Shown here: piece after piece, positions 27,403-62,558 of the stretch
Numbering within the stretch: position 1 is the stretch's first letter
How the letters are laid out: every line of letters starts with the position of its first letter
DNA from: Eledone cirrhosa
Taxonomy: Eukaryota
NCBI GenBank assembly: GCA_964016885.1
Contig: CAXHJY010001284.1
Coordinates: forward strand, 124,001-188,000
Direction: 5' to 3'
Length of the DNA: 64,000 nucleotides
Program-made: the position numbers and the translations under genes
Notes under the pieces: generated by a model
Told to the model about the DNA's origin: nothing
Databases searched by the model: none
What the model saw: only the letters and a program-made list of their open reading frames with translations

Positions 27403-27434
<32 letters not shown>

Positions 27435-27552
27435 GGTGGTGGTAGTGTTGCTGTTTTTGTTTTTGTTGTTGTTGCTGGTGGTGGTGGTGGTGGTGGTGAT
27501 GGTGATGGTGGTGATGGTGGTGGTTTTTGCTGGTGTTGTTTTTGTTGTTGTT

Positions 27553-27584
<32 letters not shown>

Positions 27585-29500: not shown

Positions 29501-29611
29501 ACTACTACTACTACGACTACTACTACTACTACTAGTAGTAGTAGTAGTAGTCGTAATTCTATTCTCAAGGAAAACACGACATAACAATTATGATGATGAT
29601 AGTAATAATAA

Positions 29612-30239: not shown

Positions 30240-30629
30240 TACCATCATCATCATCATCATCATCGTCATCATCGTCATCATCATCATCGTCATCATCATC
30301 ATCATCATCATCATCGTCATCATCGTCATCATCATCATCATCATCGTCATCATCATCAACATCGTCATCATCGTCATCATCATCATCATCGTCATCATCG
30401 TCATCATCATCATCATCGTCGTCATCATCGTCATCATCGTCATCATCATCATCATCTTCAACACCATCATCGCCATCATCATCGTCATCATCATCTTCAT
30501 CGTCATCATCATCATCATCGTCGTCATCATCATCATCATCATCACCACCACCATCACCATCATCATCATCATCAACATCACCATCATCATCGTCATCACC
30601 ATCATCATCACCACCACCATAAACATCAC

Positions 30630-30661
<32 letters not shown>

Positions 30662-30683
30662 CCACCACCACCATCATCATCAC

Positions 30684-30715
<32 letters not shown>

Positions 30716-30775
30716 GCATCATCATCATCATCATCACGCTCAGCATCTTCATCCTCATAATCAATCATTTATGAT
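30240..30775. repeat. (CAT)n/(CGT)/(CAC) trinucleotide tract
   Basis: Direct reading. Confidence 0.95.
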
Positions 30776-31044: not shown

Positions 31045-31304
31045 ATAACAACGTGAATTATCTAATGGGAGTCACCATTCCGTTATTGTGTTTGCCTTAC
31101 TCTGACCCCCACTAACAAACTTCATAAATGAAACCCTCATGGTTCACATGCTAATGGATACGATAGAAATCTACATGGTCGACTTAACAAAATACCTATA
31201 AGGAACAGAATATATATAATGTAGAAACCCTATTAAATATGTCTATAGTTTCTACAAAGATATATGGATGATTATGGGATTAGATAAATGTGTGAAAAAC
31301 CACT
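31045..31304 (+). pseudogene. Decayed R4/Dong-like LINE RT, left part
   Basis: Degenerate GDSLSP-like segment (~31067-31115), YMVDL (YMDDL-like, ~31172-31186) and YSFYKDIWMIMGLDKCVK (~31244-31297). Confidence 0.7.
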
Positions 31305-31308
31305 TTAA

Positions 31309-34300
31309 CCCTTTAGCATTTAAGCCGGCCATATCCGGCCAGAACTCTCTCACTTCTTTCTGTTCAAACTGGCTGTAACCAGTCACTCATACTAATATTA
31401 AGGTATTATTCTCAAAATAAATATCATCAAAATCTCATAGATTTGATATTATGTAAGATAATTATGTAAGGTAAAGCCTTTACTGAGAAAATACAATAGT
31501 ATATATAGAGTAATGTAAATGTTATGGAAGGTAAAGCCTTTACTGAGAAAATACAATAGTATATATAGAGTAATGTAAATGTTATGTAAGGTAAAGCCTT
31601 TACTGAGAAAATACAATAGTATATATAGAGTAATGTAAATGTTATGTAAGGTAAAGCCTTTACTGAGAAAATACAATAGTATATATAGAGTAGTGTAAAT
31701 GTTATGTAAGGTAAAGCCTTTACTGAGAAAATACAATAGTATATATAGAGTAATGTAAATGTTATGTAAGGTAAAGCCTTTACTGAGAAAATACAATAGT
31801 ATATATAGAGTAATATAAATGTTATGGAAGGTAAAGCCTTTACTGGGAAAATACAATAATATATATAGAGTAATGTAAATGTTATGTAAGGTAAAGCCTT
31901 TACTGAGAAAATACAATAGTATATATAGAGTAATGTAAATGTTATGTAAGGTAAACCTTTTACTGGGAAAATACAATAGTATATATAGAGTAATATAAAT
32001 GTTATGTAAGGTAAAGCCTTTACTGAGAAAATACAATAGTATATATAGAGTAATATAAATGTTATGGAAGGTAAAGCCTTTACTGGGAAAATACAATAGT
32101 ATATATAGAGAAATGTAAATGTTATGTAAGGTAAAGCCTTTACTGAGAAAATACAATAGTATATATAGAGTAATGTAAATGTTATGTAAGGTAAAGCCTT
32201 TACTGAGAAAATACAATAACATATATAAATTAATCTAAATGTTATGTAAGGTAAAGCCTTTACTTAGAAAATACAATAGTATATATAGAGTAATGTAAAT
32301 GTTATGTAAGGTAAAGCCTTTACTGAGAAAATACAATAGTATATATAGAGTAATGTAAATGTTATGTAAGGTAAAGCCTTTACTGAGAAAATACAATAGT
32401 ATATATAGAGTAATGTAAATGTTATGTAAAGTAAAGCCTTTACTGAGAAAATACAATAGTATATATAGAGTAATGTAAATGTTATGGAAGGTAAAGCCTT
32501 TACTGAGAAGATACAATAGTATATATAGAGTAATGTAAATGTTATGTAAGGTAAAGCCTTTACTGAGAAAATACAATAGTATATATAGAGTAATGTAAAT
32601 GTTATGTAAGGTAAACCTTTTACTGGGAAAATACAATAGTATATATAGAATGATGTAAATGTTATGTAACGTAAAGCCTTTACTGAGAAAATACGATAGT
32701 ATATATAGAGTAATGTAAATGTTATGTAAGGTAAAGCCTTTACTGAGAAAATACAATAGTATATATAGAGTAATGTAAATGTTATGGAAGGTAAAGCCTT
32801 TACTGAGAAAATACAATAGTATATATAGAGTAATGTAAATGTTATGGAAGGTAAAGCCTTTACTGAGAAAATACAATAGTATATATAGAGTAATATAAAT
32901 GTTATGTAAGGTAAAGCCTTTACTGAGAAAATACAATAGTATATATAGAGTAATATAAATGTTATGGAAGGTAAAGCCTTTACTGGGAAAATACAATAAT
33001 ATATATAGAGTAATGTAAATGTTATGTAAGGTAAAGCCTTTACTGAGAAAATACAATAGTATATATAGAGTAATGTAAATGTTATGTAAGGTAAACCTTT
33101 TACTGGGAAAATACAATAGTATATATAGAGTAATATAAATGTTATGTAAGGTAAAGCCTTTACTGAGAAAATACAATAGTATATATAGAGTAATATAAAT
33201 GTTATGGAAGGTAAAGCCTTTACTGGGAAAATACAATAGTATATATAGAGAAATGTAAATGTTATGTAAGGTAAAGCCTTTACTGAGAAAATACAATAGT
33301 ATATATAGAGTAATGTAAATGTTATGTAAGGTAAAGCCTTTACTGAGAAAATACAATAACATATATAAATTAATCTAAATGTTATGTAAGGTAAAGCCTT
33401 TACTTAGAAAATACAATAGTATATATAGAGTAATGTAAATGTTATGTAAGGTAAAGCCTTTACTGAGAAAATACAATAGTATATATAGAGTAATGTAAAT
33501 GTTATGTAAGGTAAAGCCTTTACTGAGAAAATACAATAGTATATATAGAGTAATGTAAATGTTATGTAAAGTAAAGCCTTTACTGAGAAAATACAATAGT
33601 ATATATAGAGTAATGTAAATGTTATGGAAGGTAAAGCCTTTACTGAGAAGATACAATAGTATATATAGAGTAATGTAAATGTTATGTAAGGTAAAGCCTT
33701 TACTGAGAAAATACAATAGTATATATAGAGTAATGTAAATGTTATGTAAGGTAAACCTTTTACTGGGAAAATACAATAGTATATATAGAATGATGTAAAT
33801 GTTATGTAAGGTAAAGCCTTTACTGAGAAAATACGATAGTATATATAGAATAATGTAAATGTTATGTAAGGTAAAGCCTTTACTGAGAAAATACAATAGT
33901 ATATATAGAGTAATGTAAATGTTATGTAAGGTAAAGCCTTTACTGAGAAAATACAATAGTATATATAGAGTAATGTAAATGTTATGTAAGGTAAAGCCTT
34001 TACTGATAAAATACAATAACATATATAAATTAATCTAAATGTTATGTAAGGTAAAGCCTTTACTGATAAAATACAATAGTATATATAGAGTAATGTAAAT
34101 GTTATGTAAGGTAAAGCCTTTACTGAGAAAATACAATAGTATATATAGAGTAATATAAATGTTATGTAAGGTAAAGCCTTTACTGAGAAAATACAATAGT
34201 ATATATAGAGTAATATAAATGTTATGGAAGGTAAATCCTTTACTGGGAAAATACAATAGTATATATAGAGAAATGTAAATGTTATGTAAGGTAAAGCCTT

Positions 34301-37300
34301 TACTGAGAAAATACAATAGTATATATAGAGTAATGTAAATGTTATGTAAGGTAAAGCCTTTACTGAGAAAATACAATAACATATATAAATTAATCTAAAT
34401 GTTATGTAAGGTAAAGCCTTTACTTAGAAAATACAATAGTATATATAGAGTAATGTAAATGTTATGTAAGGTAAAGCCTTTACTGAGAAAATACAATAGT
34501 ATATATAGAGTAATGTAAATGTTATGTAAGGTAAAGCCTTTACTGAGAAAATACAATAGTATATATAGAGTAATGTAAATGTTATGTAAGGTAAAGCCTT
34601 TACTTAGAAAATACAATAGTATATATAGAGTAATGTAAATGTTATGTAAGGTAAACCTTTTACTGGGAAAATACAATAGTATATATAGAATGATGTAAAT
34701 GTTATGGAAGGTAAAGCCTTTACTGAGAAGATACAATAGTATATATAGAGTAATGTAAATGTTATGTAAGGTAAAGCCTTTACTGAGAAAATACAATAGT
34801 ATATATAGAGTAATGTAAATGTTATGTAAGGTAAACCTTTTACTGGGAAAATACAATAGTATATATAGAATGATGTAAATGTTATGTAAGGTAAAGCCTT
34901 TACTAATAAAATACAATAACATATATAAATTAATCTAAATGTTATGTAAGGTAAAGCCTTTACTGATAAAATACAATAGTATATATAGAGTAATGTAAAT
35001 GTTATGTAAGGTAAAGCCTTTACTGAGAAAATACAATAGTATATATAGAGTAATATAAATGTTATGTAAGGTAAAGCCTTTACTGAGAAAATACAATAGT
35101 ATATATAGAGTAATATAAATGTTATGGAAGGTAAAGCCTTTACTGGGAAAATACAATAGTATATATAGAGTAATGTAAATGTTATGTAAGGTAAAGCCTT
35201 TACTGAGAAAATACAATAGTATATATAGAGTAATGTAAATGTTATGGAAGGTAAAGCCTTTACTGAGAAAATACAATAGTATATATAGAGTAATGTAAAA
35301 GTTATGTAAGGTAAACCTTTGACTGGGAAAATACAATAGTATATATAGAGTAATATAAATGTTATGGAAGGTAAAGCCTTTACTGGGAAAATACAATAAT
35401 ATATATAGAGTAATATAAATGTTATGTAAGGTAAAGCCTTTACTGAGAAAATACAATAGTATATATAGAGTAATATAAATGTTATGGAAGGTAAAGCCTT
35501 TACTGGGAAAATACAATAATATATATAGAGTAATGTAAATGTTATGTAAGGTAAAGCCTTTACTGAGAAAATACAATAGTATATATAGAGTAATGTAAAT
35601 ATTATGTAAGGTAAACCTTTTACTGGGAAAATACAATAGTATATATAGAGTAATATAAATGTTATGTAAGGTAAAGCCTTTACTGAGAAAATACAATAGT
35701 ATATATAGAGTAATATAAATGTTATGGAAGGTAAAGCCTTTACTGGGAAAATACATAGTATATATAGAGAAATGTAAATGTTATGTAAGGTAAAGCCTTT
35801 ACTGAGAAAATACAATAGTATATATAGAGTAATGTAAATGTTATGTAAGGTAAAGCCTTTACTGAGAAAATACAATAACATATATAAATTAATCTAAATG
35901 TTATGTAAGGTAAAGCCTTTACTTAGAAAATACAATAGTATATATAGAGTAATGTAAATGTTATGTAAGGTAAAGCCTTTACTGAGAAAATACAATAGTA
36001 TATATAGAGTAATGTAAATGTTATGTAAGGTAAAGCCTTTACTGAGAAAATACAATAGTATATATAGAGTAATATAAATGTTATTTAAGGTAAAGCCTTT
36101 ACTGAGAAAATACAATAGTATATATAGAGTAATATAAATGTTATGGAAGGTAAAGCCTTTACTGGGAAAATACAATAGTATATATAGAGTAATGTAAATG
36201 TTATGTAAGGTAAAGCCTTTACTGAGAAAATACAATAGTATATATAGAGTAATGTAAATGTTATGGAAGGTAAAGCCTTTACTGAGAAAATACAATAGTA
36301 TATATAGAGTAATGTAAATGTTATGTAAGGTAAAGCCTTTACGGAGAAAATACAATAATGTATATAGAGTAATGTAAATGTTATGTAAGGTAAAGCCTTT
36401 ACTGAGAAAATACAATAGTATATATAGAGTAATGTAAATGTTATGTAAGGTAAAGCCTTTACTGGGAAAATACAATAGTATATATAGAGTAATGTAAATG
36501 TTATGTAAGGTAAAGCCTTTACTGAGAAAATACAATAGTATATATAGAGTAATATAAATGTTATGTAAGGTAAAGCCTTTACTGAGAAAATACAATAGTA
36601 TATATAGAGTAATATAAATATTATGGAAGGTAAAGCCTTTACTGGGAAAATACAATAATATATATAGAGTAATGTCAATGTTATGTAAGGTAAAGCCTTT
36701 ACTGAGAAAATACAATAGTATATATAGAGTAATGTAAATGTTATGTAAGGTAAACCTTTTACTGGGAAAATACAATAGTATATATAGAGTAATATAAATG
36801 TTATGTGAGGTAAAGCCTTTACTGAGAAAATACAATAGTATATATAGAGTAATATAAATGTTATGGAAGGTAAAGCCTTTACTGGGAAAATACAATAGTA
36901 TATATAGAGAAATGTAAATGTTATGTAAGGTAAAGCCTTTACTGAGAAAATACAATAGTATATATAGAGTAATGTAAATGTTATGTAAGGTAAAGCCTTT
37001 ACTGAGAAAATACAATAACATATATAAATTAATCTAAATGTTATGTAAGGTAAAGCCTTTACTTAGAAAATACAATAGTATATATAGAGTAATGTAAATG
37101 TTATGTAAGGTAAAGCCTTTACTGAGAAAATACAATAGTATATATAGAGTAATGTAAATGTTATGTAAGGTAAAGCCTTTACTGAGAAAATACAATAGTA
37201 TATATAGAGTAATGTAAATGTTATGGAAGGTAAAGCCTTTACTGGGAAAATACAATAATATATATAGAGTAATATAAATGTTATGTAAGGTAAAGCCTTT

Positions 37301-40300
37301 ACTGAGAAAATACAATAGTATATATAGAGTAATATAAATGTTATGGAAGGTAAAGCCTTTACTGGGAAAATACAATAATATATATAGAGTAATGTAAATG
37401 TTATGTAAGGTAAAGCCTTTACTGAGAAAATACAATAGTATATATAGAGTAATGTAAATGTTATGTAAGGTAAACCTTTTACTGGGAAAATACAATAGTA
37501 TATATAGAGTAATATAAATGTTATGTAAGGTAAAGCCTTTACTGAGAAAATACAATAGTATATATAGAGTAATATAAATGTTATGGAAGGTAAAGCCTTT
37601 ACTGGGAAAATACATAGTATATATAGAGAAATGTAAATGTTATGTAAGGTAAAGCCTTTACTGAGAAAATACAATAGTATATATAGAGTAATGTAAATGT
37701 TATGTAAGGTAAAGCCTTTACTGAGAAAATACAATAACATATATAAATTAATCTAAATGTTATGTAAGGTAAAGCCTTTACTTAGAAAATACAATAGTAT
37801 ATATAGAGTAATGTAAATGTTATGTAAGGTAAAGCCTTTACTGAGAAAATACAATAGTATATATAGAGTAATGTAAATGTTATGTAAGGTAAAGCCTTTA
37901 CTGAGAAAATACAATAGTATATATAGAGTAATATAAATGTTATTTAAGGTAAAGCCTTTACTGAGAAAATACAATAGTATATATAGAGTAATATAAATGT
38001 TATGGAAGGTAAAGCCTTTACTGGGAAAATACAATAGTATATATAGAGTAATGTAAATGTTATGTAAGGTAAAGCCTTTACTGAGAAAATACAATAGTAT
38101 ATATAGAGTAATGTAAATGTTATGGAAGGTAAAGCCTTTACTGAGAAAATACAATAGTATATATAGAGTAATGTAAATGTTATGTAAGGTAAAGCCTTTA
38201 CGGAGAAAATACAATAATGTATATAGAGTAATGTAAATGTTATGTAAGGTAAAGCCTTTACTGAGAAAATACAATAGTATATATAGAGTAATGTAAATGT
38301 TATGTAAGGTAAAGCCTTTACTGGGAAAATACAATAGTATATATAGAGTAATATAAATGTTATGTAAGGTAAAGCCTTTACTGAGAAAATACAATAGTAT
38401 ATATAGAGTAATATAAATATTATGGAAGGTAAAGCCTTTACTGGGAAAATACAATAATATATATAGAGTAATGTCAATGTTATGTAAGGTAAAGCCTTTA
38501 CTGAGAAAATACAATAGTATATATAGAGTAATGTAAATGTTATGTAAGGTAAACCTTTTACTGGGAAAATACAATAGTATATATAGAGTAATATAAATGT
38601 TATGTGAGGTAAAGCCTTTACTGAGAAAATACAATAGTATATATAGAGTAATATAAATGTTATGGAAGGTAAAGCCTTTACTGGGAAAATACAATAGTAT
38701 ATATAGAGAAATGTAAATGTTATGTAAGGTAAAGCCTTTACTGAGAAAATACAATAGTATATATAGAGTAATGTAAATGTTATGTAAGGTAAAGCCTTTA
38801 CTGAGAAAATACAATAACATATATAAATTAATCTAAATGTTATGTAAGGTAAAGCCTTTACTTAGAAAATACAATAGTATATATAGAGTAATGTAAATGT
38901 TATGTAAGGTAAAGCCTTTACTGAGAAAATACAATAGTATATATAGAGTAATGTAAATGTTATGTAAGGTAAAGCCTTTACTGAGAAAATACAATAGTAT
39001 ATATAGAGTAATGTAAATGTTATGGAAGGTAAAGCCTTTACTGAGAAAATACAATAGTATATATAGAGTAATGTAAATGTTATGTAAGGTAAAGCCTTTA
39101 CTGAGAAAATACAATAGTATATATAGAGTAATGTAAATGTTATGTAAGGTAAAAGCCTTTACTGAGAAAATACAATAGTATATATAGAGTAATGTAAATG
39201 TTATGTAAGGTAAAGCCTTTACGGAGAAAATACAATAATATATATAGAGTAATGTAAATGTTATGTAAGGTAAAGCCTTTACTGAGAAAATACAATAGTA
39301 TATATAGAGTAATGTAAATGTTATGTAAAGTAAAGCCTTTACTGAGAAAATACAATAGTATATATAGAGTAATGTAAATGTTATGTAAGGTAAAGCCTTT
39401 ACTGGGAAAATACAATAGTATATATAGAGTAATTTAAATGTTATGTAAGGTAAAGCCTTTACTGAGAAAATACAATAGTATATATAGAGTAATGTAAATG
39501 TTATGTAACGTAAAGCCTTTACTGGGAAAATACAATAGTATATATAGAGTAATGTAAATGTTATGTAAGGTAAAGCCTTTACTGAGAAAATACAATAGTA
39601 TATATAGAGTAATGTAAATGTTATGTAAGGTAAAGCCTTTACTGAGAAAATACAATAACATATATAGAGTAATGTAAATGTTATGTAAGGTAAAGCCTTT
39701 ACTGAGAAAATACAATAGTATATATAGAGTAATATAAATGTTATGGAAGATAAAGCCTTTACTGAGAAAATACAATAGTATATATAGAGTAATGTAAATG
39801 TTATGTAAGGTAAAGCCTTTACTGAGAAAATACAATAGTATATATAGAGTAATATAAATGTTATGTAAGGTAAAGCCTTTACTGAGAAAATACAATAGTA
39901 TATATAGAGTAATATAAATGTTATGGAAGGTAAAGCCTTTACTGGGAAAATACAATAGTATATATAGAGTAATGTAAATGTTATGTAAGGTAAAGCCTTT
40001 ACTGAGAAAATACAATAGTATATATAGAGTAATGTAAATGTTATGTAAGGTAAAGCCTTTACTGAGAAAATACAATAACATATATAGAGTAATGTAAATG
40101 TTATGTAAGGTAAAGCCTTTACTGAGAAAATACAATAGTATATATAGAGTAATATAAATGTTATGGAAGATAAAGCCTTTACTGAGAAAATACAATAGTA
40201 TATATAGAGTAATGTAAATGTTATGTAAGGTAAAGCCTTTACTGAGAAAATACAATAGTATATATAGAGTAATGTAAATGTTATGTAAGGTAAAGCCTTT

Positions 40301-43300
40301 ACTGAGAAAATACAATAGTATATATAGAGTAATGTAAATGTTATGTAAGGTAAAGCCTTTACTGGGAAAATACAATAGTATATATAGAGTAATATAAATG
40401 TTATGTAAGGTAAAGCCTTTACTGAGAAAATACAATAGTATATATAGAGTAATATAAATATTATGGAAGGTAAAGCCTTTACTGGGAAAATACAATAATA
40501 TATATAGAGTAATGTCAATGTTATGTAAGGTAAAGCCTTTACTGAGAAAATACAATAGTATATATAGAGTAATGTAAATGTTATGTAAGGTAAACCTTTT
40601 ACTGGGAAAATACAATAGTATATATAGAGTAATATAAATGTTATGTGAGGTAAAGCCTTTACTGAGAAAATACAATAGTATATATAGAGTAATATAAATG
40701 TTATGGAAGGTAAAGCCTTTACTGGGAAAATACAATAGTATATATAGAGTAATGTAAATGTTATGTAAGGTAAAGCCTTTACTGAGAAAATACAATAGTA
40801 TATATAGAGTAATGTAAATGTTATGTAAAGTAAAGCCTTTACTGAGAAAATACAATAGTATATATAGAGTAATGTAAATGTTATGGAAGGTAAAGCCTTT
40901 ACTGAGAAGATACAATAGTATATATAGAGTAATGTAAATGTTATGTAAGGTAAAGCCTTTACTGAGAAAATACAATAGTATATATAGAGTAATGTAAATG
41001 TTATGTAAGGTAAACCTTTTACTGGGAAAATACAATAGTATATATAGAATGATGTAAATGTTATGTAACGTAAAGCCTTTACTGAGAAAATACGATAGTA
41101 TATATAGAGTAATGTAAATGTTATGTAAGGTAAAGCCTTTACTGAGAAAATACAATAGTATATATAGAGTAATGTAAATGTTATGGAAGGTAAAGCCTTT
41201 ACTGAGAAAATACAATAGTATATATAGAGTAATGTAAATGTTATGGAAGGTAAAGCCTTTACTGAGAAAATACAATAGTATATATAGAGTAATATAAATG
41301 TTATGTAAGGTAAAGCCTTTACTGAGAAAATACAATAGTATATATAGAGTAATATAAATGTTATGGAAGGTAAAGCCTTTACTGGGAAAATACAATAATA
41401 TATATAGAGTAATGTAAATGTTATGTAAGGTAAAGCCTTTACTGAGAAAATACAATAGTATATATAGAGTAATGTAAATGTTATGTAAGGTAAACCTTTT
41501 ACTGGGAAAATACAATAGTATATATAGAGTAATATAAATGTTATGTAAGGTAAAGCCTTTACTGAGAAAATACAATAGTATATATAGAGTAATATAAATG
41601 TTATGGAAGGTAAAGCCTTTACTGGGAAAATACAATAGTATATATAGAGAAATGTAAATGTTATGTAAGGTAAAGCCTTTACTGAGAAAATACAATAGTA
41701 TATATAGAGTAATGTAAATGTTATGTAAGGTAAAGCCTTTACTGAGAAAATACAATAACATATATAAATTAATCTAAATGTTATGTAAGGTAAAGCCTTT
41801 ACTTAGAAAATACAATAGTATATATAGAGTAATGTAAATGTTATGTAAGGTAAAGCCTTTACTGAGAAAATACAATAGTATATATAGAGTAATGTAAATG
41901 TTATGTAAGGTAAAGCCTTTACTGAGAAAATACAATAGTATATATAGAGTAATGTAAATGTTATGTAAAGTAAAGCCTTTACTGAGAAAATACAATAGTA
42001 TATATAGAGTAATGTAAATGTTATGGAAGGTAAAGCCTTTACTGAGAAGATACAATAGTATATATAGAGTAATGTAAATGTTATGTAAGGTAAAGCCTTT
42101 ACTGAGAAAATACAATAGTATATATAGAGTAATGTAAATGTTATGTAAGGTAAACCTTTTACTGGGAAAATACAATAGTATATATAGAATGATGTAAATG
42201 TTATGTAAGGTAAAGCCTTTACTGAGAAAATACGATAGTATATATAGAATAATGTAAATGTTATGTAAGGTAAAGCCTTTACTGAGAAAATACAATAGTA
42301 TATATAGAGTAATGTAAATGTTATGTAAGGTAAAGCCTTTACTGAGAAAATACAATAGTATATATAGAGTAATGTAAATGTTATGTAAGGTAAAGCCTTT
42401 ACTGATAAAATACAATAACATATATAAATTAATCTAAATGTTATGTAAGGTAAAGCCTTTACTGATAAAATACAATAGTATATATAGAGTAATGTAAATG
42501 TTATGTAAGGTAAAGCCTTTACTGAGAAAATACAATAGTATATATAGAGTAATATAAATGTTATGTAAGGTAAAGCCTTTACTGAGAAAATACAATAGTA
42601 TATATAGAGTAATATAAATGTTATGGAAGGTAAATCCTTTACTGGGAAAATACAATAGTATATATAGAGAAATGTAAATGTTATGTAAGGTAAAGCCTTT
42701 ACTGAGAAAATACAATAGTATATATAGAGTAATGTAAATGTTATGTAAGGTAAAGCCTTTACTGAGAAAATACAATAACATATATAAATTAATCTAAATG
42801 TTATGTAAGGTAAAGCCTTTACTTAGAAAATACAATAGTATATATAGAGTAATGTAAATGTTATGTAAGGTAAAGCCTTTACTGAGAAAATACAATAGTA
42901 TATATAGAGTAATGTAAATGTTATGTAAGGTAAAGCCTTTACTGAGAAAATACAATAGTATATATAGAGTAATGTAAATGTTATGTAAGGTAAAGCCTTT
43001 ACTTAGAAAATACAATAGTATATATAGAGTAATGTAAATGTTATGTAAGGTAAACCTTTTACTGGGAAAATACAATAGTATATATAGAATGATGTAAATG
43101 TTATGGAAGGTAAAGCCTTTACTGAGAAGATACAATAGTATATATAGAGTAATGTAAATGTTATGTAAGGTAAAGCCTTTACTGAGAAAATACAATAGTA
43201 TATATAGAGTAATGTAAATGTTATGTAAGGTAAACCTTTTACTGGGAAAATACAATAGTATATATAGAATGATGTAAATGTTATGTAAGGTAAAGCCTTT

Positions 43301-46300
43301 ACTAATAAAATACAATAACATATATAAATTAATCTAAATGTTATGTAAGGTAAAGCCTTTACTGATAAAATACAATAGTATATATAGAGTAATGTAAATG
43401 TTATGTAAGGTAAAGCCTTTACTGAGAAAATACAATAGTATATATAGAGTAATATAAATGTTATGTAAGGTAAAGCCTTTACTGAGAAAATACAATAGTA
43501 TATATAGAGTAATATAAATGTTATGGAAGGTAAAGCCTTTACTGGGAAAATACAATAGTATATATAGAGTAATGTAAATGTTATGTAAGGTAAAGCCTTT
43601 ACTGAGAAAATACAATAGTATATATAGAGTAATGTAAATGTTATGGAAGGTAAAGCCTTTACTGAGAAAATACAATAGTATATATAGAGTAATGTAAAAG
43701 TTATGTAAGGTAAACCTTTGACTGGGAAAATACAATAGTATATATAGAGTAATATAAATGTTATGGAAGGTAAAGCCTTTACTGGGAAAATACAATAATA
43801 TATATAGAGTAATATAAATGTTATGTAAGGTAAAGCCTTTACTGAGAAAATACAATAGTATATATAGAGTAATATAAATGTTATGGAAGGTAAAGCCTTT
43901 ACTGGGAAAATACAATAATATATATAGAGTAATGTAAATGTTATGTAAGGTAAAGCCTTTACTGAGAAAATACAATAGTATATATAGAGTAATGTAAATA
44001 TTATGTAAGGTAAACCTTTTACTGGGAAAATACAATAGTATATATAGAGTAATATAAATGTTATGTAAGGTAAAGCCTTTACTGAGAAAATACAATAGTA
44101 TATATAGAGTAATATAAATGTTATGGAAGGTAAAGCCTTTACTGGGAAAATACATAGTATATATAGAGAAATGTAAATGTTATGTAAGGTAAAGCCTTTA
44201 CTGAGAAAATACAATAGTATATATAGAGTAATGTAAATGTTATGTAAGGTAAAGCCTTTACTGAGAAAATACAATAACATATATAAATTAATCTAAATGT
44301 TATGTAAGGTAAAGCCTTTACTTAGAAAATACAATAGTATATATAGAGTAATGTAAATGTTATGTAAGGTAAAGCCTTTACTGAGAAAATACAATAGTAT
44401 ATATAGAGTAATGTAAATGTTATGTAAGGTAAAGCCTTTACTGAGAAAATACAATAGTATATATAGAGTAATATAAATGTTATTTAAGGTAAAGCCTTTA
44501 CTGAGAAAATACAATAGTATATATAGAGTAATATAAATGTTATGGAAGGTAAAGCCTTTACTGGGAAAATACAATAGTATATATAGAGTAATGTAAATGT
44601 TATGTAAGGTAAAGCCTTTACTGAGAAAATACAATAGTATATATAGAGTAATGTAAATGTTATGGAAGGTAAAGCCTTTACTGAGAAAATACAATAGTAT
44701 ATATAGAGTAATGTAAATGTTATGTAAGGTAAAGCCTTTACGGAGAAAATACAATAATGTATATAGAGTAATGTAAATGTTATGTAAGGTAAAGCCTTTA
44801 CTGAGAAAATACAATAGTATATATAGAGTAATGTAAATGTTATGTAAGGTAAAGCCTTTACTGGGAAAATACAATAGTATATATAGAGTAATGTAAATGT
44901 TATGTAAGGTAAAGCCTTTACTGAGAAAATACAATAGTATATATAGAGTAATATAAATGTTATGTAAGGTAAAGCCTTTACTGAGAAAATACAATAGTAT
45001 ATATAGAGTAATATAAATATTATGGAAGGTAAAGCCTTTACTGGGAAAATACAATAATATATATAGAGTAATGTCAATGTTATGTAAGGTAAAGCCTTTA
45101 CTGAGAAAATACAATAGTATATATAGAGTAATGTAAATGTTATGTAAGGTAAACCTTTTACTGGGAAAATACAATAGTATATATAGAGTAATATAAATGT
45201 TATGTGAGGTAAAGCCTTTACTGAGAAAATACAATAGTATATATAGAGTAATATAAATGTTATGGAAGGTAAAGCCTTTACTGGGAAAATACAATAGTAT
45301 ATATAGAGAAATGTAAATGTTATGTAAGGTAAAGCCTTTACTGAGAAAATACAATAGTATATATAGAGTAATGTAAATGTTATGTAAGGTAAAGCCTTTA
45401 CTGAGAAAATACAATAACATATATAAATTAATCTAAATGTTATGTAAGGTAAAGCCTTTACTTAGAAAATACAATAGTATATATAGAGTAATGTAAATGT
45501 TATGTAAGGTAAAGCCTTTACTGAGAAAATACAATAGTATATATAGAGTAATGTAAATGTTATGTAAGGTAAAGCCTTTACTGAGAAAATACAATAGTAT
45601 ATATAGAGTAATGTAAATGTTATGGAAGGTAAAGCCTTTACTGGGAAAATACAATAATATATATAGAGTAATATAAATGTTATGTAAGGTAAAGCCTTTA
45701 CTGAGAAAATACAATAGTATATATAGAGTAATATAAATGTTATGGAAGGTAAAGCCTTTACTGGGAAAATACAATAATATATATAGAGTAATGTAAATGT
45801 TATGTAAGGTAAAGCCTTTACTGAGAAAATACAATAGTATATATAGAGTAATGTAAATGTTATGTAAGGTAAACCTTTTACTGGGAAAATACAATAGTAT
45901 ATATAGAGTAATATAAATGTTATGTAAGGTAAAGCCTTTACTGAGAAAATACAATAGTATATATAGAGTAATATAAATGTTATGGAAGGTAAAGCCTTTA
46001 CTGGGAAAATACATAGTATATATAGAGAAATGTAAATGTTATGTAAGGTAAAGCCTTTACTGAGAAAATACAATAGTATATATAGAGTAATGTAAATGTT
46101 ATGTAAGGTAAAGCCTTTACTGAGAAAATACAATAACATATATAAATTAATCTAAATGTTATGTAAGGTAAAGCCTTTACTTAGAAAATACAATAGTATA
46201 TATAGAGTAATGTAAATGTTATGTAAGGTAAAGCCTTTACTGAGAAAATACAATAGTATATATAGAGTAATGTAAATGTTATGTAAGGTAAAGCCTTTAC

Positions 46301-49300
46301 TGAGAAAATACAATAGTATATATAGAGTAATATAAATGTTATTTAAGGTAAAGCCTTTACTGAGAAAATACAATAGTATATATAGAGTAATATAAATGTT
46401 ATGGAAGGTAAAGCCTTTACTGGGAAAATACAATAGTATATATAGAGTAATGTAAATGTTATGTAAGGTAAAGCCTTTACTGAGAAAATACAATAGTATA
46501 TATAGAGTAATGTAAATGTTATGGAAGGTAAAGCCTTTACTGAGAAAATACAATAGTATATATAGAGTAATGTAAATGTTATGTAAGGTAAAGCCTTTAC
46601 GGAGAAAATACAATAATGTATATAGAGTAATGTAAATGTTATGTAAGGTAAAGCCTTTACTGAGAAAATACAATAGTATATATAGAGTAATGTAAATGTT
46701 ATGTAAGGTAAAGCCTTTACTGGGAAAATACAATAGTATATATAGAGTAATATAAATGTTATGTAAGGTAAAGCCTTTACTGAGAAAATACAATAGTATA
46801 TATAGAGTAATATAAATATTATGGAAGGTAAAGCCTTTACTGGGAAAATACAATAATATATATAGAGTAATGTCAATGTTATGTAAGGTAAAGCCTTTAC
46901 TGAGAAAATACAATAGTATATATAGAGTAATGTAAATGTTATGTAAGGTAAACCTTTTACTGGGAAAATACAATAGTATATATAGAGTAATATAAATGTT
47001 ATGTGAGGTAAAGCCTTTACTGAGAAAATACAATAGTATATATAGAGTAATATAAATGTTATGGAAGGTAAAGCCTTTACTGGGAAAATACAATAGTATA
47101 TATAGAGAAATGTAAATGTTATGTAAGGTAAAGCCTTTACTGAGAAAATACAATAGTATATATAGAGTAATGTAAATGTTATGTAAGGTAAAGCCTTTAC
47201 TGAGAAAATACAATAACATATATAAATTAATCTAAATGTTATGTAAGGTAAAGCCTTTACTTAGAAAATACAATAGTATATATAGAGTAATGTAAATGTT
47301 ATGTAAGGTAAAGCCTTTACTGAGAAAATACAATAGTATATATAGAGTAATGTAAATGTTATGTAAGGTAAAGCCTTTACTGAGAAAATACAATAGTATA
47401 TATAGAGTAATGTAAATGTTATGGAAGGTAAAGCCTTTACTGAGAAAATACAATAGTATATATAGAGTAATGTAAATGTTATGTAAGGTAAAGCCTTTAC
47501 TGAGAAAATACAATAGTATATATAGAGTAATGTAAATGTTATGTAAGGTAAAAGCCTTTACTGAGAAAATACAATAGTATATATAGAGTAATGTAAATGT
47601 TATGTAAGGTAAAGCCTTTACGGAGAAAATACAATAATATATATAGAGTAATGTAAATGTTATGTAAGGTAAAGCCTTTACTGAGAAAATACAATAGTAT
47701 ATATAGAGTAATGTAAATGTTATGTAAAGTAAAGCCTTTACTGAGAAAATACAATAGTATATATAGAGTAATGTAAATGTTATGTAAGGTAAAGCCTTTA
47801 CTGGGAAAATACAATAGTATATATAGAGTAATTTAAATGTTATGTAAGGTAAAGCCTTTACTGAGAAAATACAATAGTATATATAGAGTAATGTAAATGT
47901 TATGTAACGTAAAGCCTTTACTGGGAAAATACAATAGTATATATAGAGTAATGTAAATGTTATGTAAGGTAAAGCCTTTACTGAGAAAATACAATAGTAT
48001 ATATAGAGTAATGTAAATGTTATGTAAGGTAAAGCCTTTACTGAGAAAATACAATAACATATATAGAGTAATGTAAATGTTATGTAAGGTAAAGCCTTTA
48101 CTGAGAAAATACAATAGTATATATAGAGTAATATAAATGTTATGGAAGATAAAGCCTTTACTGAGAAAATACAATAGTATATATAGAGTAATGTAAATGT
48201 TATGTAAGGTAAAGCCTTTACTGAGAAAATACAATAGTATATATAGAGTAATATAAATGTTATGTAAGGTAAAGCCTTTACTGAGAAAATACAATAGTAT
48301 ATATAGAGTAATATAAATGTTATGGAAGGTAAAGCCTTTACTGGGAAAATACAATAGTATATATAGAGTAATGTAAATGTTATGTAAGGTAAAGCCTTTA
48401 CTGAGAAAATACAATAGTATATATAGAGTAATGTAAATGTTATGTAAGGTAAAGCCTTTACTGAGAAAATACAATAACATATATAGAGTAATGTAAATGT
48501 TATGTAAGGTAAAGCCTTTACTGAGAAAATACAATAGTATATATAGAGTAATATAAATGTTATGGAAGATAAAGCCTTTACTGAGAAAATACAATAGTAT
48601 ATATAGAGTAATGTAAATGTTATGTAAGGTAAAGCCTTTACTGAGAAAATACAATAGTATATATAGAGTAATGTAAATGTTATGTAAGGTAAAGCCTTTA
48701 CTGAGAAAATACAATAACATATATAAATTAATCTAAATGTTATGTAAGGTAAAGCCTTTACTTAGAAAATACAATAGTATATATAGAGTAATGTAAATGT
48801 TATGTAAGGTAAAGCCTTTACTGAGAAAATACAATAGTATATATAGAGTAATGTAAATGTTATGTAAGGTAAAGCCTTTACTGAGAAAATACAATAGTAT
48901 ATATAGAGTAATGTAAATGTTATGGAAGGTAAAGCCTTTACTGAGAAAATACAATAGTATATATAGAGTAATGTAAATGTTATGTAAGGTAAAGCCTTTA
49001 CTGAGAAAATACAATAGTATATATAGAGTAATGTAAATGTTATGTAAGGTAAAAGCCTTTACTGAGAAAATACAATAGTATATATAGAGTAATGTAAATG
49101 TTATGTAAGGTAAAGCCTTTACGGAGAAAATACAATAATATATATAGAGTAATGTAAATGTTATGTAAGGTAAAGCCTTTACTGAGAAAATACAATAGTA
49201 TATATAGAGTAATGTAAATGTTATGTAAAGTAAAGCCTTTACTGAGAAAATACAATAGTATATATAGAGTAATGTAAATGTTATGTAAGGTAAAGCCTTT

Positions 49301-55300: not shown

Positions 55301-58300
55301 CTTTACTGAGAAAATACAATAGTATATATAGAGTAATATAAATGTTATGGAAGGTAAAGCCTTTACTGAGAAAATACAATAGTATATATAGAGTAATGTA
55401 AATGTTATGGAAGGTAAAGCCTTTACTGAGAAAATACAATAGTATATATAGAGTAATATAAATGTTATGTAAGGTAAAGCCTTTACTGAGAAAATACAAT
55501 AGTATATATAGAGTAATATAAATGTTATGGAAGGTAAAGCCTTTACTGGGAAAATACAATAATATATATAGAGTAATGTAAATGTTATGTAAGGTAAAGC
55601 CTTTACTGAGAAAATACAATAGTATATATAGAGTAATGTAAATGTTATGTAAGGTAAACCTTTTACTGGGAAAATACAATAGTATATATAGAGTAATATA
55701 AATGTTATGTAAGGTAAAGCCTTTACTGAGAAAATACAATAGTATATATAGAGTAATATAAATGTTATGGAAGGTAAAGCCTTTACTGGGAAAATACAAT
55801 AGTATATATAGAGAAATGTAAATGTTATGTAAGGTAAAGCCTTTACTGAGAAAATACAATAGTATATATAGAGTAATGTAAATGTTATGTAAGGTAAAGC
55901 CTTTACTGAGAAAATACAATAACATATATAAATTAATCTAAATGTTATGTAAGGTAAAGCCTTTACTTAGAAAATACAATAGTATATATAGAGTAATGTA
56001 AATGTTATGTAAGGTAAAGCCTTTACTGAGAAAATACAATAGTATATATAGAGTAATGTAAATGTTATGTAAGGTAAAGCCTTTACTGAGAAAATACAAT
56101 AGTATATATAGAGTAATGTAAATGTTATGTAAGGTAAAGCCTTTACTTAGAAAATACAATAGTATATATCGAGTAATGTAAATGTTATGTAAGGTAAACC
56201 TTTTACTGGGAAAATACAATAGTATATATAGAATGATGTAAATGTTATGGAAGGTAAAGCCTTTACTGAGAAGATACAATAGTATATATAGAGTAATGTA
56301 AATGTTATGTAAGGTAAAGCCTTTACTGAGAAAATACAATAGTATATATAGAGTAATGTAAATGTTATGTAAGGTAAACCTTTTACTGGGAAAATACAAT
56401 AGTATATATAGAATGATGTAAATGTTATGTAAGGTAAAGCCTTTACTAATAAAATACAATAACATATATAAATTAATCTAAATGTTATGTAAGGTAAAGC
56501 CTTTACTGAGAAAATACAATAGTATATATAGAGTAATATAAATGTTATGTAAGGTAAAGCCTTTACTGAGAAAATACAATAGTATATATAGAGTAATATA
56601 AATGTTATGGAAGGTAAAGCCTTTACTGGGAAAATACAATAGTATATATAGAGTAATGTAAATGTTATGTAAGGTAAAGCCTTTACTGAGAAAATACAAT
56701 AGTATATATAGAGTAATGTAAATGTTATGGAAGGTAAAGCCTTTACTGAGAAAATACAATAGTATATATAGAGTAATGTAAAAGTTATGTAAGGTAAACC
56801 TTTGACTGGGAAAATACAATAGTATATATAGAGTAATATAAATGTTATGGAAGGTAAAGCCTTTACTGGGAAAATACAATAATATATATAGAGTAATATA
56901 AATGTTATGTAAGGTAAAGCCTTTACTGAGAAAATACAATAGTATATATAGAGTAATATAAATGTTATGGAAGGTAAAGCCTTTACTGGGAAAATACAAT
57001 AATATATATAGAGTAATGTAAATGTTATGTAAGGTAAAGCCTTTACTGAGAAAATACAATAGTATATATAGAGTAATGTAAATGTTATGTAAGGTAAACC
57101 TTTTACTGGGAAAATACAATAGTATATATAGAGTAATATAAATGTTATGTAAGGTAAAGCCTTTACTGAGAAAATACAATAGTATATATAGAGTAATATA
57201 AATGTTATGGAAGGTAAAGCCTTTACTGGGAAAATACATAGTATATATAGAGAAATGTAAATGTTATGTAAGGTAAAGCCTTTACTGAGAAAATACAATA
57301 GTATATATAGAGTAATGTAAATGTTATGTAAGGTAAAGCCTTTACTGAGAAAATACAATAACATATATAAATTAATCTAAATGTTATGTAAGGTAAAGCC
57401 TTTACTTAGAAAATACAATAGTATATATAGAGTAATGTAAATGTTATGTAAGGTAAAGCCTTTACTGAGAAAATACAATAGTATATATAGAGTAATGTAA
57501 ATGTTATGTAAGGTAAAGCCTTTACTGAGAAAATACAATAGTATATATAGAGTAATATAAATGTTATTTAAGGTAAAGCCTTTACTGAGAAAATACAATA
57601 GTATATATAGAGTAATATAAATGTTATGGAAGGTAAAGCCTTTACTGGGAAAATACAATAGTATATATAGAGTAATGTAAATGTTATGTAAGGTAAAGCC
57701 TTTACTGAGAAAATACAATAGTATATATAGAGTAATGTAAATGTTATGGAAGGTAAAGCCTTTACTGAGAAAATACAATAGTATATATAGAGTAATGTAA
57801 ATGTTATGTAAGGTAAAGCCTTTACGGAGAAAATACAATAATGTATATAGAGTAATGTAAATGTTATGTAAGGTAAAGCCTTTACTGAGAAAATACAATA
57901 GTATATATAGAGTAATGTAAATGTTATGTAAGGTAAAGCCTTTACTGGGAAAATACAATAGTATATATAGAGTAATGTAAATGTTATGTAAGGTAAAGCC
58001 TTTACTGAGAAAATACAATAGTATATATAGAGTAATATAAATGTTATGTAAGGTAAAGCCTTTACTGAGAAAATACAATAGTATATATAGAGTAATATAA
58101 ATATTATGGAAGGTAAAGCCTTTACTGGGAAAATACAATAATATATATAGAGTAATGTCAATGTTATGTAAGGTAAAGCCTTTACTGAGAAAATACAATA
58201 GTATATATAGAGTAATGTAAATGTTATGTAAGGTAAACCTTTTACTGGGAAAATACAATAGTATATATAGAGTAATATAAATGTTATGTGAGGTAAAGCC

Positions 58301-61300
58301 TTTACTGAGAAAATACAATAGTATATATAGAGTAATATAAATGTTATGGAAGGTAAAGCCTTTACTGGGAAAATACAATAGTATATATAGAGAAATGTAA
58401 ATGTTATGTAAGGTAAAGCCTTTACTGAGAAAATACAATAGTATATATAGAGTAATGTAAATGTTATGTAAGGTAAAGCCTTTACCGAGAAAATACAATA
58501 GTATATATAGAGTAATGTAAATGTTATGTAAGGTAAAGCCTTTACTGAGAAAATACAATAACATATATAGAGTAATGTAAATGTTATGTAAGGTAAAGCC
58601 TTTACTGAGAAAATACAATAGTATATATAGAGTAATATAAATGTTATGGAAGATAAAGCCTTTACTGAGAAAATACAATAGTATATATAGAGTAATGTAA
58701 ATGTTATGTAAGGTAAAGCCTTTACTGAGAAAATACAATAACATATATAGAGTAATCTAAATGTTATGTAAGGTAAAGCCTTTACTGAGAAAATACAATA
58801 GTATATATAGAGTAATGTAAATGTTATGTAAGGTAAAGCCTTTACTGAGAAAATACAATAGTATATATAGAGTAATGTAAATGTTATGTAAGGTAAAAGC
58901 CTTTACTGAGAAAATACAATAGTATATATAGAGTAATGTAAATGTTATGTAAGGTAAAGCCTTTACGGAGAAAATACAATAATATATATAGAGTAATGTA
59001 AATGTTATGTAAGGTAAAGCCTTTACTGAGAAAATACAATAGTATATATAGAGTAATGTAAATGTTATGTAAAGTAAAGCCTTTACTGAGAAAATACAAT
59101 AGTATATATAGAGTAATGTAAATGTTATGTAAGGTAAAGCCTTTACTGGGAAAATACAATAGTATATATAGAGTAATTTAAATGTTATGTAAGGTAAAGC
59201 CTTTACTGAGAAAATACAATAGTATATATAGAGTAATGTAAATGTTATGTAACGTAAAGCCTTTACTGGGAAAATACAATAGTATATATAGAGTAATGTA
59301 AATGTTATGTAAGGTAAAGCCTTTACTGAGAAAATACAATAGTATATATAGAGTAATGTAAATGTTATGTAAGGTAAAGCCTTTACTGAGAAAATACAAT
59401 AGTATATATAGAGTAATGTAAATGTTATGTAAGGTAAAGCCTTTACTGAGAAAATACAATAGTATATATAGAGTAATGTGAATGTTATGTAAGGTAAAGC
59501 CTTTACTGAGAAAATACAATAACATATATAGAGTAATGTAAATGTTATGTAAGGTAAAGCCTTTACTGAGAAAATACAATAGTATATATAGAGTAATATA
59601 AATGTTATGTAAGGTAAAGCCTTTACTGAGAAAATACAATAGTATATATAGAGTAATATAAATGTTATGGAAGGTAAAGCCTTTACTGGGAAAATACAAT
59701 AGTATATATAGAGTAATGTAAATGTTATGTAAGGTAAAGCCTTTACTGAGAAAATACAATAGTATATATAGAGTAATGTAAATGTTATGGAAGGTAAAGC
59801 CTTTACTGAGAAAATACAATAGTATATATAGAGTAATGTAAATGTTATGTAAGGTAAAGCCTTTACTGAGAAAATACAATAGTATATATAGAGTAATGTA
59901 AATGTTATGTAAGGTAAAGCCTTTACTGAGAAAATACAATAGTATATATAGAGTAATATAAATGTTATGTAAGGTAAAGCCTTTACTGAGAAAATACAAT
60001 AGTATATATAGAGTAATATAAATGTTATGGAAGGTAAAGCCTTTACTGGGAAAATACAATAGTATATATAGAGTAATGTAAATGTTATGTAAGGTAAAGC
60101 CTTTACTGAGAAAATACAATAGTATATATAGAGTAATGTAAATGTTATGGAAGGTAAAGCCTTTACTGAGAAAATACAATAGTATATATAGAGTAATGTA
60201 AATGTTATGTAAGGTAAAGCCTTTACTGAGAAAATACAATAGTATATATAGAGTAATGTAAATGTTATGTAAGGTAAAAGCCTTTACTGAGAAAATACAA
60301 TAGTATATATAGAGTAATGTAAATGTTATGTAACGTAAAGCCTTTACTGGGAAAATACAATAGTATATATAGAGTAATGTAAATGTTATGTAAGGTAAAG
60401 CCTTTACTGAGAAAATACAATAGTATATATAGAGTAATGTAAATGTTATGGAAGGTAAAGCCTTTACTGAGAAGATACAATAGTATATATAGAGTAATGT
60501 AAATGTTATGTAAGGTAAAGCCTTTACTGAGAAAATACAATAGTATATATAGAGTAATGTAAATGTTATGTAAGGTAAAGCCTTTACTGAGAAAATACAA
60601 TAGTATATATAGAGTAGTGTAAATGTTATGTAAGGTAAAGCCTTTACTGAGAAAATACAATAGTATATATAGAGTAATGTAAATGTTATGTAAGGTAAAG
60701 CCTTTACTGAGAAAATACAATAACATATATAGAGTAATGTAAATGTTATGTAAGGTAAAGCCTTTACTGAGAAAATACAATAGTATATATAGAGTAATAT
60801 AAATGTTATGGAAGATAAAGCCTTTACTGAGAAAATACAATAGTATATATAGAGTAATGTAAATGTTATGTAAGGTAAAGTCTTTACTGAGAAAATACAA
60901 TAGTATATATAGAGTAATATAAATGTTATGTAAGGTAAAGCCTTTACTGAGAAAATACAATAGTGTATATAGAGTAATATAAATGTTATGGAAGGTAAAG
61001 CCTTTACTGGGAAAATACAATAGTATATATAGAGTAATGTAAATGTTATGTAAGGTAAAGCCTTTACGGAGAAAATACAATAATATATATAGAGTAATGT
61101 AAATGTTATGTAAGGTAAAGCCTTTACTGAGAAAATACAATAGTATATATAGAGTAATGTAAATGTTATGTAAGGTAAAAGCCTTTACTGAGAAAATACA
61201 ATAGTATATATAGAGTAATGTAAATGTTATGTAAGGTAAAGCCTTTACGGAGAAAATACAATAATATATATAGAGTAATGTAAATGTTATGTAAGGTAAA

Positions 61301-62554
61301 GCCTTTACTGGGAAAATACAATAGTATATATAGAGTAATTTAAATGTTATGTAAAGTAAAGCCTTTACTGAGAAAATACAATAGTATATATAGAGTAATG
61401 TAAATGTTATGTAACGTAAAGCCTTTACTGGGAAAATACAATAGTATATATAGAGTAATGTAAATGTTATGTAAGGTAAAGCCTTTACTGAGAAAATACA
61501 ATAGTATATATAGAGTAATGTAAATGTTATGGAAGGTAAAGCCTTTACTGAGAAGATACAATAGTATATATAGAGTAATGTAAATGTTATGTAAGGTAAA
61601 GCCTTTACTGAGAAAATACAATAGTATATATAGAGTAATGTAAATGTTATGTAAGGTAAAGCCTTTACTGGGAAAATACAATAGTATATATAGAGTAATG
61701 TAAATGTTATGTAAGGTAAAGCCTTTACTGAGAAAATACAATAGTATATATAGAGTAATGTAAATGTTATGTAAGGTAAAGCCTTTACTGAGAAAATACA
61801 ATAGTATATATAGAGTAATGTAAATGTTATGTAAGGTAAAGCCTTTACCGAGAAAATACAATAGTATATATAGAGTAATGTAAATGTTATGTAAGGTAAA
61901 GCCTTTACTGAGAAAATACAATAACATATATAGAGTAATGTAAATGTTATGTAAGGTAAAGCCTTTACTGAGAAAATACAATAGTATATATAGAGTAATA
62001 TAAATGTTATGGAAGATAAAGCCTTTACTGAGAAAATACAATAGTATATATAGAGTAATGTAAATGTTATGTAAGGTAAAGCCTTTACTGAGAAAATACA
62101 ATAACATATATAGAGTAATCTAAATGTTATGTAAGGTAAAGCCTTTACTGAGAAAATACAATAGTATATATAGAGTAATGTAAATTTTATGTAAGGTAAA
62201 GCCTTTACTGAGAAAATACAATAGTATATATAGAGTAATGTAAATGTTATGTAAGGTAAAGCCTTTACTGAGAAAATACAATAGTATATATAGAGTAATA
62301 TAAATGTTATGGAAGGTAAAGCCTTTACTGAGAAAATACAATAGTATATATAGAGTAATGTAAATTTTATGTAAGGTAAAGCCTTTACTGAGAAAATACA
62401 ATAGTATATATAGAGTAATGTAAATGTTATGTAAGGTAAAGCCTTTACTGAGAAAATACAATCGTATATATAGATTAATGTAAATGTTATGTAAGGTAAA
62501 GCCTTTACTGAGAAAATACAATCGTATATATAGATTAATGTAAATGCTAAAGGG
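31309..62554. mobile_element. piggyBac-type MITE enclosing the whole satellite array
   Basis: TTAA (31305-31308) + CCCTTTAGCATTTA ... TAAATGCTAAAGGG + TTAA (62555-62558): perfect 14-bp TIRs with CCC/GGG ends and TTAA on both sides. Confidence 0.88.
31462..62546. repeat. 60-bp satellite array, ~518 units
   Basis: Consensus TTATGTAAGGTAAAGCCTTTACTGAGAAAATACAATAGTATATATAGAGTAATGTAAATG, uninterrupted for ~31.1 kb, with most units within a few substitutions of consensus. Confidence 0.99.
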
Positions 62555-62558
62555 TTAA

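Follow-up and report, generated by a model that had tools for sequence, protein, structure and literature searches.

We propose that a 31-kb satellite array in the genome of Eledone cirrhosa arose inside a single copy of a ~220-bp piggyBac-type MITE (miniature inverted-repeat transposable element), and that it grew where that MITE had landed, by repeated out-of-register recombination from a short seed array; we give this reading a probability of roughly two in three. The stretch analysed, here called the window, is 64,000 nucleotides long (positions 124,001 to 188,000 of contig CAXHJY010001284.1, assembly GCA_964016885.1). It contains no N, and lies on an unplaced contig of 192,749 bp in a 3.0-Gb assembly. 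The window array stands at the extreme end of a minisatellite that occurs throughout its family, and the case combines two known phenomena, growth of a satellite inside a MITE and site-specific insertion of a retrotransposon into the repeated unit, the second of which is seen at other loci of the family.

The array occupies positions 31462-62546 on the forward strand. Tandem Repeats Finder (TRF) gives it a period of 60 bp, 518.0 copies and 95% matches, and splitting it yields 518 units, 503 of them of 60 bp, 10 of 61 bp and 5 of 59 bp. The units comprise 51 distinct sequences, the commonest form being present as 150 identical units, of which unit 1 is one. The mean distance of a unit from this form is 2.5% and the mean pairwise divergence 4.4%, which over 31,085 bp makes this a long, homogeneous head-to-tail array, that is, a satellite. 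Its higher-order structure consists of irregular nested block duplications, with lags of 6, 18, 19, 25, 31, 70, 116 and 140 units. A preliminary description of this DNA had missed these duplications. The sole strong period reflects a single one of 140 units, in which 7,991 bp recur without a difference 8,399 bp further on (copy 1 at 32327-40317, copy 2 at 40726-48716, both forward); it is either a very recent duplication or an assembly error.

The element around the array is bounded by TTAA at 31305-31308 and at 62555-62558. Immediately inside lies a perfect 14-bp terminal inverted repeat (TIR), at 31309-31322 on the forward and 62541-62554 on the reverse strand, starting CC and ending GG as piggyBac TIRs do; these are the only such ends in the window at up to two mismatches. 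A non-repeated head of 153 bp (31309-31461, forward) precedes unit 1, and the inner 6 bp of the right TIR are the last 6 bp of unit 518. As it stands the element measures 31.25 kb; collapsed to one unit it would measure 221 bp, or 229 bp with both TTAA, which is the commonest length among dispersed copies. The TRF result, the unit splitting and the inspection of the ends thus bear out the preliminary description in its central observation, a 31-kb array of ~518 60-bp monomers with both TIRs and both TTAA intact.

Both flanks belong to one old, decayed repeat resembling a long interspersed nuclear element (LINE), which we take from its motifs to be of R4/Dong type, an unconfirmed label for a frame that holds stops. 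The left flank (31091-31304, forward) is 70% identical to the paralogous locus L033 up to the TTAA, and the right flank (62559-63106, forward), 71-74% identical to L033, resumes within 1 nt. Where the window has two TTAA, three paralogs (L033, L037 and L049) have one; three others (L035, L036 and L038) are diverged at the insertion point. These empty sites establish TTAA as the true target site, as had been proposed, and the collinear flanks place both ends at one locus, which leads us to reject the mis-join of two loci that had been named as a danger to the first interpretation. No second close copy of the right flank was found in the assembly.

The dispersed ~220-bp piggyBac-type MITE with one monomer, predicted earlier from the window sequence, exists in large numbers. 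The head with unit 1 as query found 4,562 candidates in the genome, the best 39 of which, on many chromosomes, are 90-94% identical. An exact 28-nt right-end pattern has 11,729 matches and the family therefore at least that many copies, which, with its length of 221 bp, its TIRs and its target-site duplication (TSD), marks it as a MITE family. Most single-unit copies measure 216-229 bp including both TTAA. Among the first 80 right-end matches on C1, 67 have one unit, 4 scored none (being diverged or truncated) and 9 have several (2, 3, 3, 5, 9, 12, 28, 29 and 36 units, or about 1 in 9 sampled copies); L092, one more of these 80, belongs to an interrupted array. The unit-to-unit junction is uniform across the family, with 37,112 exact occurrences genome-wide, and many other copies hold from 2 to 343 units, so that the window array is not the one-off record of satellite birth that it had been thought to be. 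LINE-free arrays of 70, ~81 and 114 units occur elsewhere, and one stretch, at least 34 kb long, holds 343 units with two LINEs. Among the arrays examined, that of the window is the longest without interruption; the long-array searches scored the best 40 of 3,506 and the best 38 of 4,089 candidates, so that longer arrays may exist, and our estimates of arrays versus single copies refer to fetched loci and not to a genome-wide locus count.

Array-bearing copies do not form a recognisable subfamily. MITE heads diverge by ~9%, mostly at CpG-type site pairs, and do so equally in array-bearing and single copies (9.6% versus 9.0%, p=0.33, n=31 and 62). A candidate array-bearing subfamily was rejected: within the first 140 columns no site was diagnostic at p<0.003, and array-bearing copies did not cluster clearly on a tree of heads (31 label changes versus 34.6±2.2 when shuffled, 36 of 500 shuffles being as low). 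As the heads of arrays are as old as those of single copies, with no clear subfamily, it is unlikely that a master with several units spread late and in a burst of its own.

Some other loci of the family have peculiarities of their own. At G000:C27:17,321,000-17,367,000 (L258-L263), 13 MITE tail arrays of 7-18 units, all with the same variant TIR, recur every ~3 kb; a larger tandem repeat has captured an array, the length of which differs between copies of the repeat. A (CAT)n-headed short repeat has inserted repeatedly near one point of the monomer, ~12 nt before the LINE site described below, at L018, L218, L233, L239 and L257. At two loci (L126 and L210/L232) one and the same short element with a terminal hairpin adjoins monomer sequence; it looks like what we take to be a Helitron 3′ end.

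An autonomous relative of the MITE is present in the same genome. A search with PF13843 gave 125 matches, and 18 of the top 30 loci belong to an element of 2,524-2,576 bp with TTAA ends, most copies of which are 97-98.5% identical, six with a full open reading frame (ORF) of 558 aa. In the 2,575-bp form this ORF matches PF13843 (E=1e-83) and PF13842 (E=1e-7), so that an autonomous piggyBac with a cysteine-rich C-terminus shares its ends with the MITE; the left TIR of the window element is 12/14 identical to the left end of one copy, L063. The window head with unit 1 aligns to the first ~203 nt of the autonomous element in 137 of 190 columns, with a score of 125.5 against at most 68 in 300 shuffles, and for the monomer alone against this left end none of 300 shuffles scored as high. 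Derivation of the monomer from the autonomous right end was tried and rejected, the alignment being no better than shuffles (20 of 300 as high); the right tip matches only the last ~18 bp of the element (17/18). By these alignments the monomer appears to be mostly piggyBac left-end sequence, from ~40-100 bp upstream of the transposase ATG. The earlier reading of the monomer as the 3′ subterminal segment of the MITE thus holds for its position, but not for its ancestry. The MITE left end is only 72% identical to the young 2,575-bp piggyBac, which is a relative of the MITE and not its direct parent. A Kolobok-type origin of the TTAA ends, for which transposases were not searched, was set aside after the piggyBac with matching ends was found.

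The transposase loci L061-L090 include two or more young autonomous piggyBac families whose TIRs differ; one of them shares ends with this MITE. The second (L071/L074/L076/L078) has ends like those of a second abundant short element, and L061 holds a distinct 589-aa ORF without these ends.

Growth of the array in place is argued for by a monomer variant private to this locus: a junction-spanning 44-mer has 186 matches in the genome, and 186 of 186 lie in the window. The best other arrays are 92-93% identical to that of the window (best 38 of 4,089 candidates, the window's own array unlisted). Confinement of the variant to the window locus suggests that the array grew there, and it answers in favour of in situ expansion the question, posed in the preliminary description, of whether the same array with the same ends recurs at other TTAA sites as a mobile satellite. 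The units lie on average 2.5% from the commonest form while the head lies 8.6% from the family majority over its first 140 columns, so growth is younger than insertion. Sequence comparison suggests that the window units copy the locus's own unit 1, with only the junction common to the family. We also count towards growth in place the continuum of sizes in other copies (2-36, 70, ~81 and 114 units, and LINE composites of 31-39 kb), and it is from the block duplications of 6 to 140 units that we infer unequal exchange or conversion.

We therefore envisage the following course. The MITE probably formed from ~200 bp of piggyBac left end and ~18 bp of right tip, as the homology to both suggests. 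It would then have spread to the more than 11,000 TTAA sites at which it is found, in the window into a decayed LINE, and a minority of copies would have come to hold two or more units at the one fixed junction now seen in them. Such tandem units are likely to expand and to homogenise locally by unequal exchange and conversion, and the seed array at the window locus likely had the family-wide junction. The window array itself is likely stuck in place and without host function.

What set such growth going is a separate matter, for which a second element in other arrays of the family has to be considered; the preliminary description missed it. In several arrays the units are interrupted by a 5,650-bp LINE, which lies in the opposite orientation, has two ORFs and targets the monomer. 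ORF1 (~580 aa) has no Pfam match; ORF2 (1,145 aa) matches PF03372, PF00078 and PF13966 and has the architecture of a LINE with an apurinic/apyrimidinic-type (APE) endonuclease, a reverse transcriptase (RT) and a C-terminal zinc motif. By its architecture this LINE is a putative member of the Tx1 clade. Among 40 fetched loci, 36 are full length and 15 have an open ORF2. Insertion is sequence-specific: 259 of 264 exact 3′ ends of the LINE come after one and the same 8-nt stretch of the monomer, and all 30 inspected 3′ ends are in monomer sequence, with only one of 40, a 43-bp fragment, in a single-unit MITE copy. Truncated copies show duplications of 9, 6 and 2 bp, as expected for independent retrotransposition.

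The 5′ end of the LINE is also related to the array. Its first 23 following nucleotides are identical in 36 of 36 full-length copies, versus 254 of 605 ordinary junctions at the same loci, which indicates that they are carried by the LINE; they start with the last three bases of the junction and run into a standard 72-bp unit. At four loci this lead is present though no host junction has it, and at L219 and L240 a complete standard unit follows the LINE although the host units before it are not standard. Three Rfam matches were obtained in a search for a ribozyme at the LINE 5′ end, all with E of at least 1.6 and far under gathering scores. At the downstream ends of L223 and L225 a slightly different LINE variant has its own 3′ junction, which lies 3 nt beyond the usual one in the monomer. 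The LINE at L243 has only its 3′ 1,777 bp, and yet the standard junction lead comes after it, whereas other truncated copies end in a short duplication.

Invaded copies can be as long as the window element. A 39.4-kb element at G000:C1:4,221,048-4,260,507 (L171-L175) has a single head and a single tail, and its 77 units fall into 7 blocks between which lie 6 full-length LINE copies, of three sequence groups; a 30.7-kb MITE at G000:C10:40,722,894-40,753,600 (L271-L274) has one head, one tail and 5 LINEs, with three of the gaps between LINEs consisting of exactly one perfect 65-nt standard unit each. Tandem LINEs one perfect unit apart differ by 30 or by 2-6 substitutions, which implies both separate insertions and local duplication or local copying. 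In the window array no LINE was found, nor its end motif, nor the standard 72-bp unit, when these were looked for there; 332 of the 518 units retain the 14-nt core around the LINE insertion point. The window array is thus an array of insertion sites for a LINE that colonised other arrays of the family and not this one.

It is possible, though clearly the less probable view, that this LINE drives the arrays: its endonuclease would nick each unit at one base, and out-of-register sister repair would expand the array. In addition, its RNA leader, holding the junction together with some or all of a unit, would be copied into MITEs, seeding and homogenising their arrays, the LINE body being later lost by recombination. 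This alternative concerns the trigger only, and growth in place would hold under it as well. The fixed insertion point, the lead carried in all full-length copies (also at the four loci whose host junctions do not have it), the standard unit at L219 and L240, the near absence of LINE ends from single-unit copies and the open ORF2 at 15 loci are all in its favour, as is the precedent of R2 breaks in the expansion of Drosophila ribosomal DNA (rDNA) (PMC10266012).

Several points weigh against recombination from a seed as the whole explanation, and some of them lend something to the LINE. The standard lead motif occurs in 0 of 74 single copies versus 20 of 26 arrays chosen by other means than the LINE, and a particular CpG-decay state is found in 14 of 73 single copies versus 17 of 26 arrays (p=4e-5), in counts where two loci are split and counted twice and some loci were picked by likeness to the window. 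Generic recombination leaves unexplained such a common standard form at unrelated loci, and its match to the LINE 5′ end. The common form needs either a multi-unit master that moved in the MITE's own old burst or a donor that acts in trans, be it the LINE leader or ectopic conversion. Divergence, compared to see whether extra units are younger than first ones, does not separate master from trans donor: for unit 2 it is 2.0% versus 3.25% in singles (p=0.18), and for array majorities 1.8% versus 3.25%, a difference that depends on the subset, with p=0.03 when all 34 arrays are taken, 0.06 when those picked via the LINE are left out (18 arrays) and 0.81 in the 6 least biased. The absence of clustering among heads is weak evidence, coming from 140 columns of a star-like family. 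Finally, no long read spans the array, and its exact 8-kb duplication may be an assembly error.

On the other side, the window array has neither LINE end motif nor standard unit, and its units copy, as it seems, their own unit 1. No full-length LINE (0 of 36) was found in a single-unit MITE with one added unit, the state expected from seeding, and recombination between LINE-flanking units would restore the prior state and make no junction. The 264 LINE ends are 140-fold fewer than the 37,112 junctions. A multi-unit master or ectopic conversion would also account for the common form, given how weak the divergence tests are (p=0.03 to 0.81), and the enrichment of LINEs in arrays may reflect nothing more than a greater number of targets and the homology at the 5′ end. 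We accordingly still prefer out-of-register recombination from a seed. The bolder picture of a selfish LINE that farms its own landing sites, carrying the junction on its RNA, writing standard monomers into old MITEs and, by nicking, driving satellites up to 31 kb, we regard as a tentative hypothesis with the odds against it.

It is very unlikely that the structure is in part an artefact, either a shorter array with a falsely duplicated 8.4-kb block or two loci mis-joined via the repeat. The exact 7,991-bp duplication, the unplaced contig of 192,749 bp and the want of a spanning long read would fit such an error. However, the flanks follow on from each other within a single LINE-like repeat that has one TTAA, which would not result from a mis-join, and short-read contigs match flank plus 25-26 bp of the element at both junctions with 0-1 differences, an overlap below the 31-bp bridging rule. 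These reads were available as contigs, those of runs X3-X5 being from one sample, possibly the source of the assembly. A 31-mer with 311 genome copies, 227 of them in the window, falls in short-read pieces of depth 1,719-1,771, or 5.5-5.7 per copy versus 4.7-7.8 for the unique flanks. This depth fits hundreds of units, and does not discriminate between 518 and the 378 that would remain if one duplicated block were removed. No second allele was seen in the short-read contigs, X1 being without coverage of the unique left flank and X2 of the right. Over window 31489-31780, contigs of run X1, which has another organism label, show a different, shorter tandem junction made from this segment of the MITE, a hint that a relative has an array type of independent origin.

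The weakest alternative, that the 31-kb unit is mobile cargo which piggyBac transposase has moved or still moves between TTAA sites, as the preliminary description had allowed, is hardly credible. In its favour are the intact TIRs and TTAA at both ends and a 2,575-bp piggyBac whose ends are related and whose copies are 97-98.5% identical, six of them with the 558-aa ORF; Trichoplusia ni piggyBac can carry 100 kb in mouse cells (PMC3239208), so that size alone is no bar. But nothing shows that movement happened. The monomer variant is confined to this locus, a search for a second copy of the unit found none, and no array more than 93% identical was among the best 38 of 4,089 candidates (a search that is not exhaustive). 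With the MITE left end 72% identical to the young piggyBac and the closest sampled 221-bp pair 95.3% identical, no sampled head pair exceeding that, even short copies appear unmoved in recent times despite the young transposase copies. Past movement of the unit is thus largely refuted.

Outside the element, the window holds a 189-bp repeat in 2.8 copies at 29608-30122, which looks like tandem short interspersed elements, and a 159-bp repeat in 2 copies at 63154-63471, of similar look and inserted in the LINE-like repeat of the right flank. Degenerate GTG/GTT/CCA/CAT tracts of up to 2.4 kb lie at 12344-14785, 27149-28514 and 30243-30768, among ~90 microsatellite rows.

Satellite growth in MITEs is usually documented with short arrays or with arrays that have lost their ends. 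Here one assembly has the whole series, from an autonomous piggyBac through thousands of one-unit copies and short arrays to an array of 518 units that retains both TIRs, the TSD and a reconstructable empty site, so the rates and steps of array growth should be measurable across individuals. A LINE that targets the monomer and carries its junction makes it testable whether tandem targets are merely exploited by site-specific retrotransposons or are created by them. Should the LINE be no more than a passenger, the family is a clean, extreme example of two known phenomena; if it does farm its sites, R2-like magnification would act at thousands of loci on a target that stems from a transposon, and dispersed minisatellites would have a route to concerted evolution by way of a retrotransposon.

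Growth of satellites inside MITEs and other TIR elements is an established route, and this case is extreme in size; the route has been reviewed (PMC12628747, PMC9659126, PMC6947457). Our search of the literature, outside which lay Repbase, Dfam, most subscription papers and the supplements of PMC13282606, found no paper on this MITE, array or LINE. In Octopus vulgaris, the repeat annotation lists young piggyBac and L1-Tx1 families, and a term search of its main text found no mention of satellites or nesting (PMC13282606).

Two Xenopus MITE systems bear comparison: miDNA4 of X. tropicalis, reportedly described by Scalvenzi and Pollet in 2014, and Xstir/Xmix of X. laevis, reportedly from Hikosaka and Kawahara in 2004. 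The internal monomer of miDNA4 occurs singly or in arrays of variable length, as in the present MITE, and has been proposed to grow into satellites (PMC12628747, PMC9659126). However, miDNA4 is a Tc1/mariner element said there to have captured a pre-existing repeat, whereas the monomer described here appears to be piggyBac's own left-end sequence with 6 bp of TIR, has both ends preserved around 518 units and is targeted by a LINE. Xstir and Xmix show one internal sequence in MITE, tandem-array and composite forms (PMC12628747, PMC9659126); the mechanism proposed for Xstir needs two neighbouring elements, while here there is one element with one head and one tail. Among molluscs, DTC84 of Donax trunculus is a MITE with a few internal repeats (PMC3879986). 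In Tetris/TIR-220 of Drosophila virilis, tandem repeats from the element's own terminal sequence have likewise been amplified within the element, with long end-flanked arrays seen by fibre fluorescence in situ hybridization (PMC4079207). Tetris, though, is a foldback element with the repeats in its long TIRs, at most 66 copies of them in the assembly and, reportedly, no autonomous partner found; the present case is a TTAA piggyBac MITE with an identified autonomous relative and a base-resolved array of 518 units.

For the LINE, two further systems are relevant. R2 in Drosophila is, like it, a site-specific retrotransposon whose target is a tandem array, and breaks by its endonuclease start array expansion in rDNA magnification (PMC10266012). 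That was shown genetically, at an essential locus and for an element with a restriction-like endonuclease (RLE), whereas here there is a correlation only, on a selfish target and for an APE-type element. The other is Tx1L in Tx1D of Xenopus laevis, with the crocodilian Tx1-Mar in Mariner-N4. Tx1D is also said to have internal tandem repeats. In both, APE-type non-LTR (long terminal repeat) retrotransposons insert at a fixed site of a DNA transposon, and in Tx1D, as here, a non-autonomous piggyBac family is hit by a site-specific LINE (PMC4494074, PMC6719617, PMC1950540). What differs in Eledone cirrhosa is that the LINE, found at other loci of the family and not in the window, has a tandem junction at its 5′ end and its target inside the amplified monomer, so that growth of an array multiplies the targets of the LINE.

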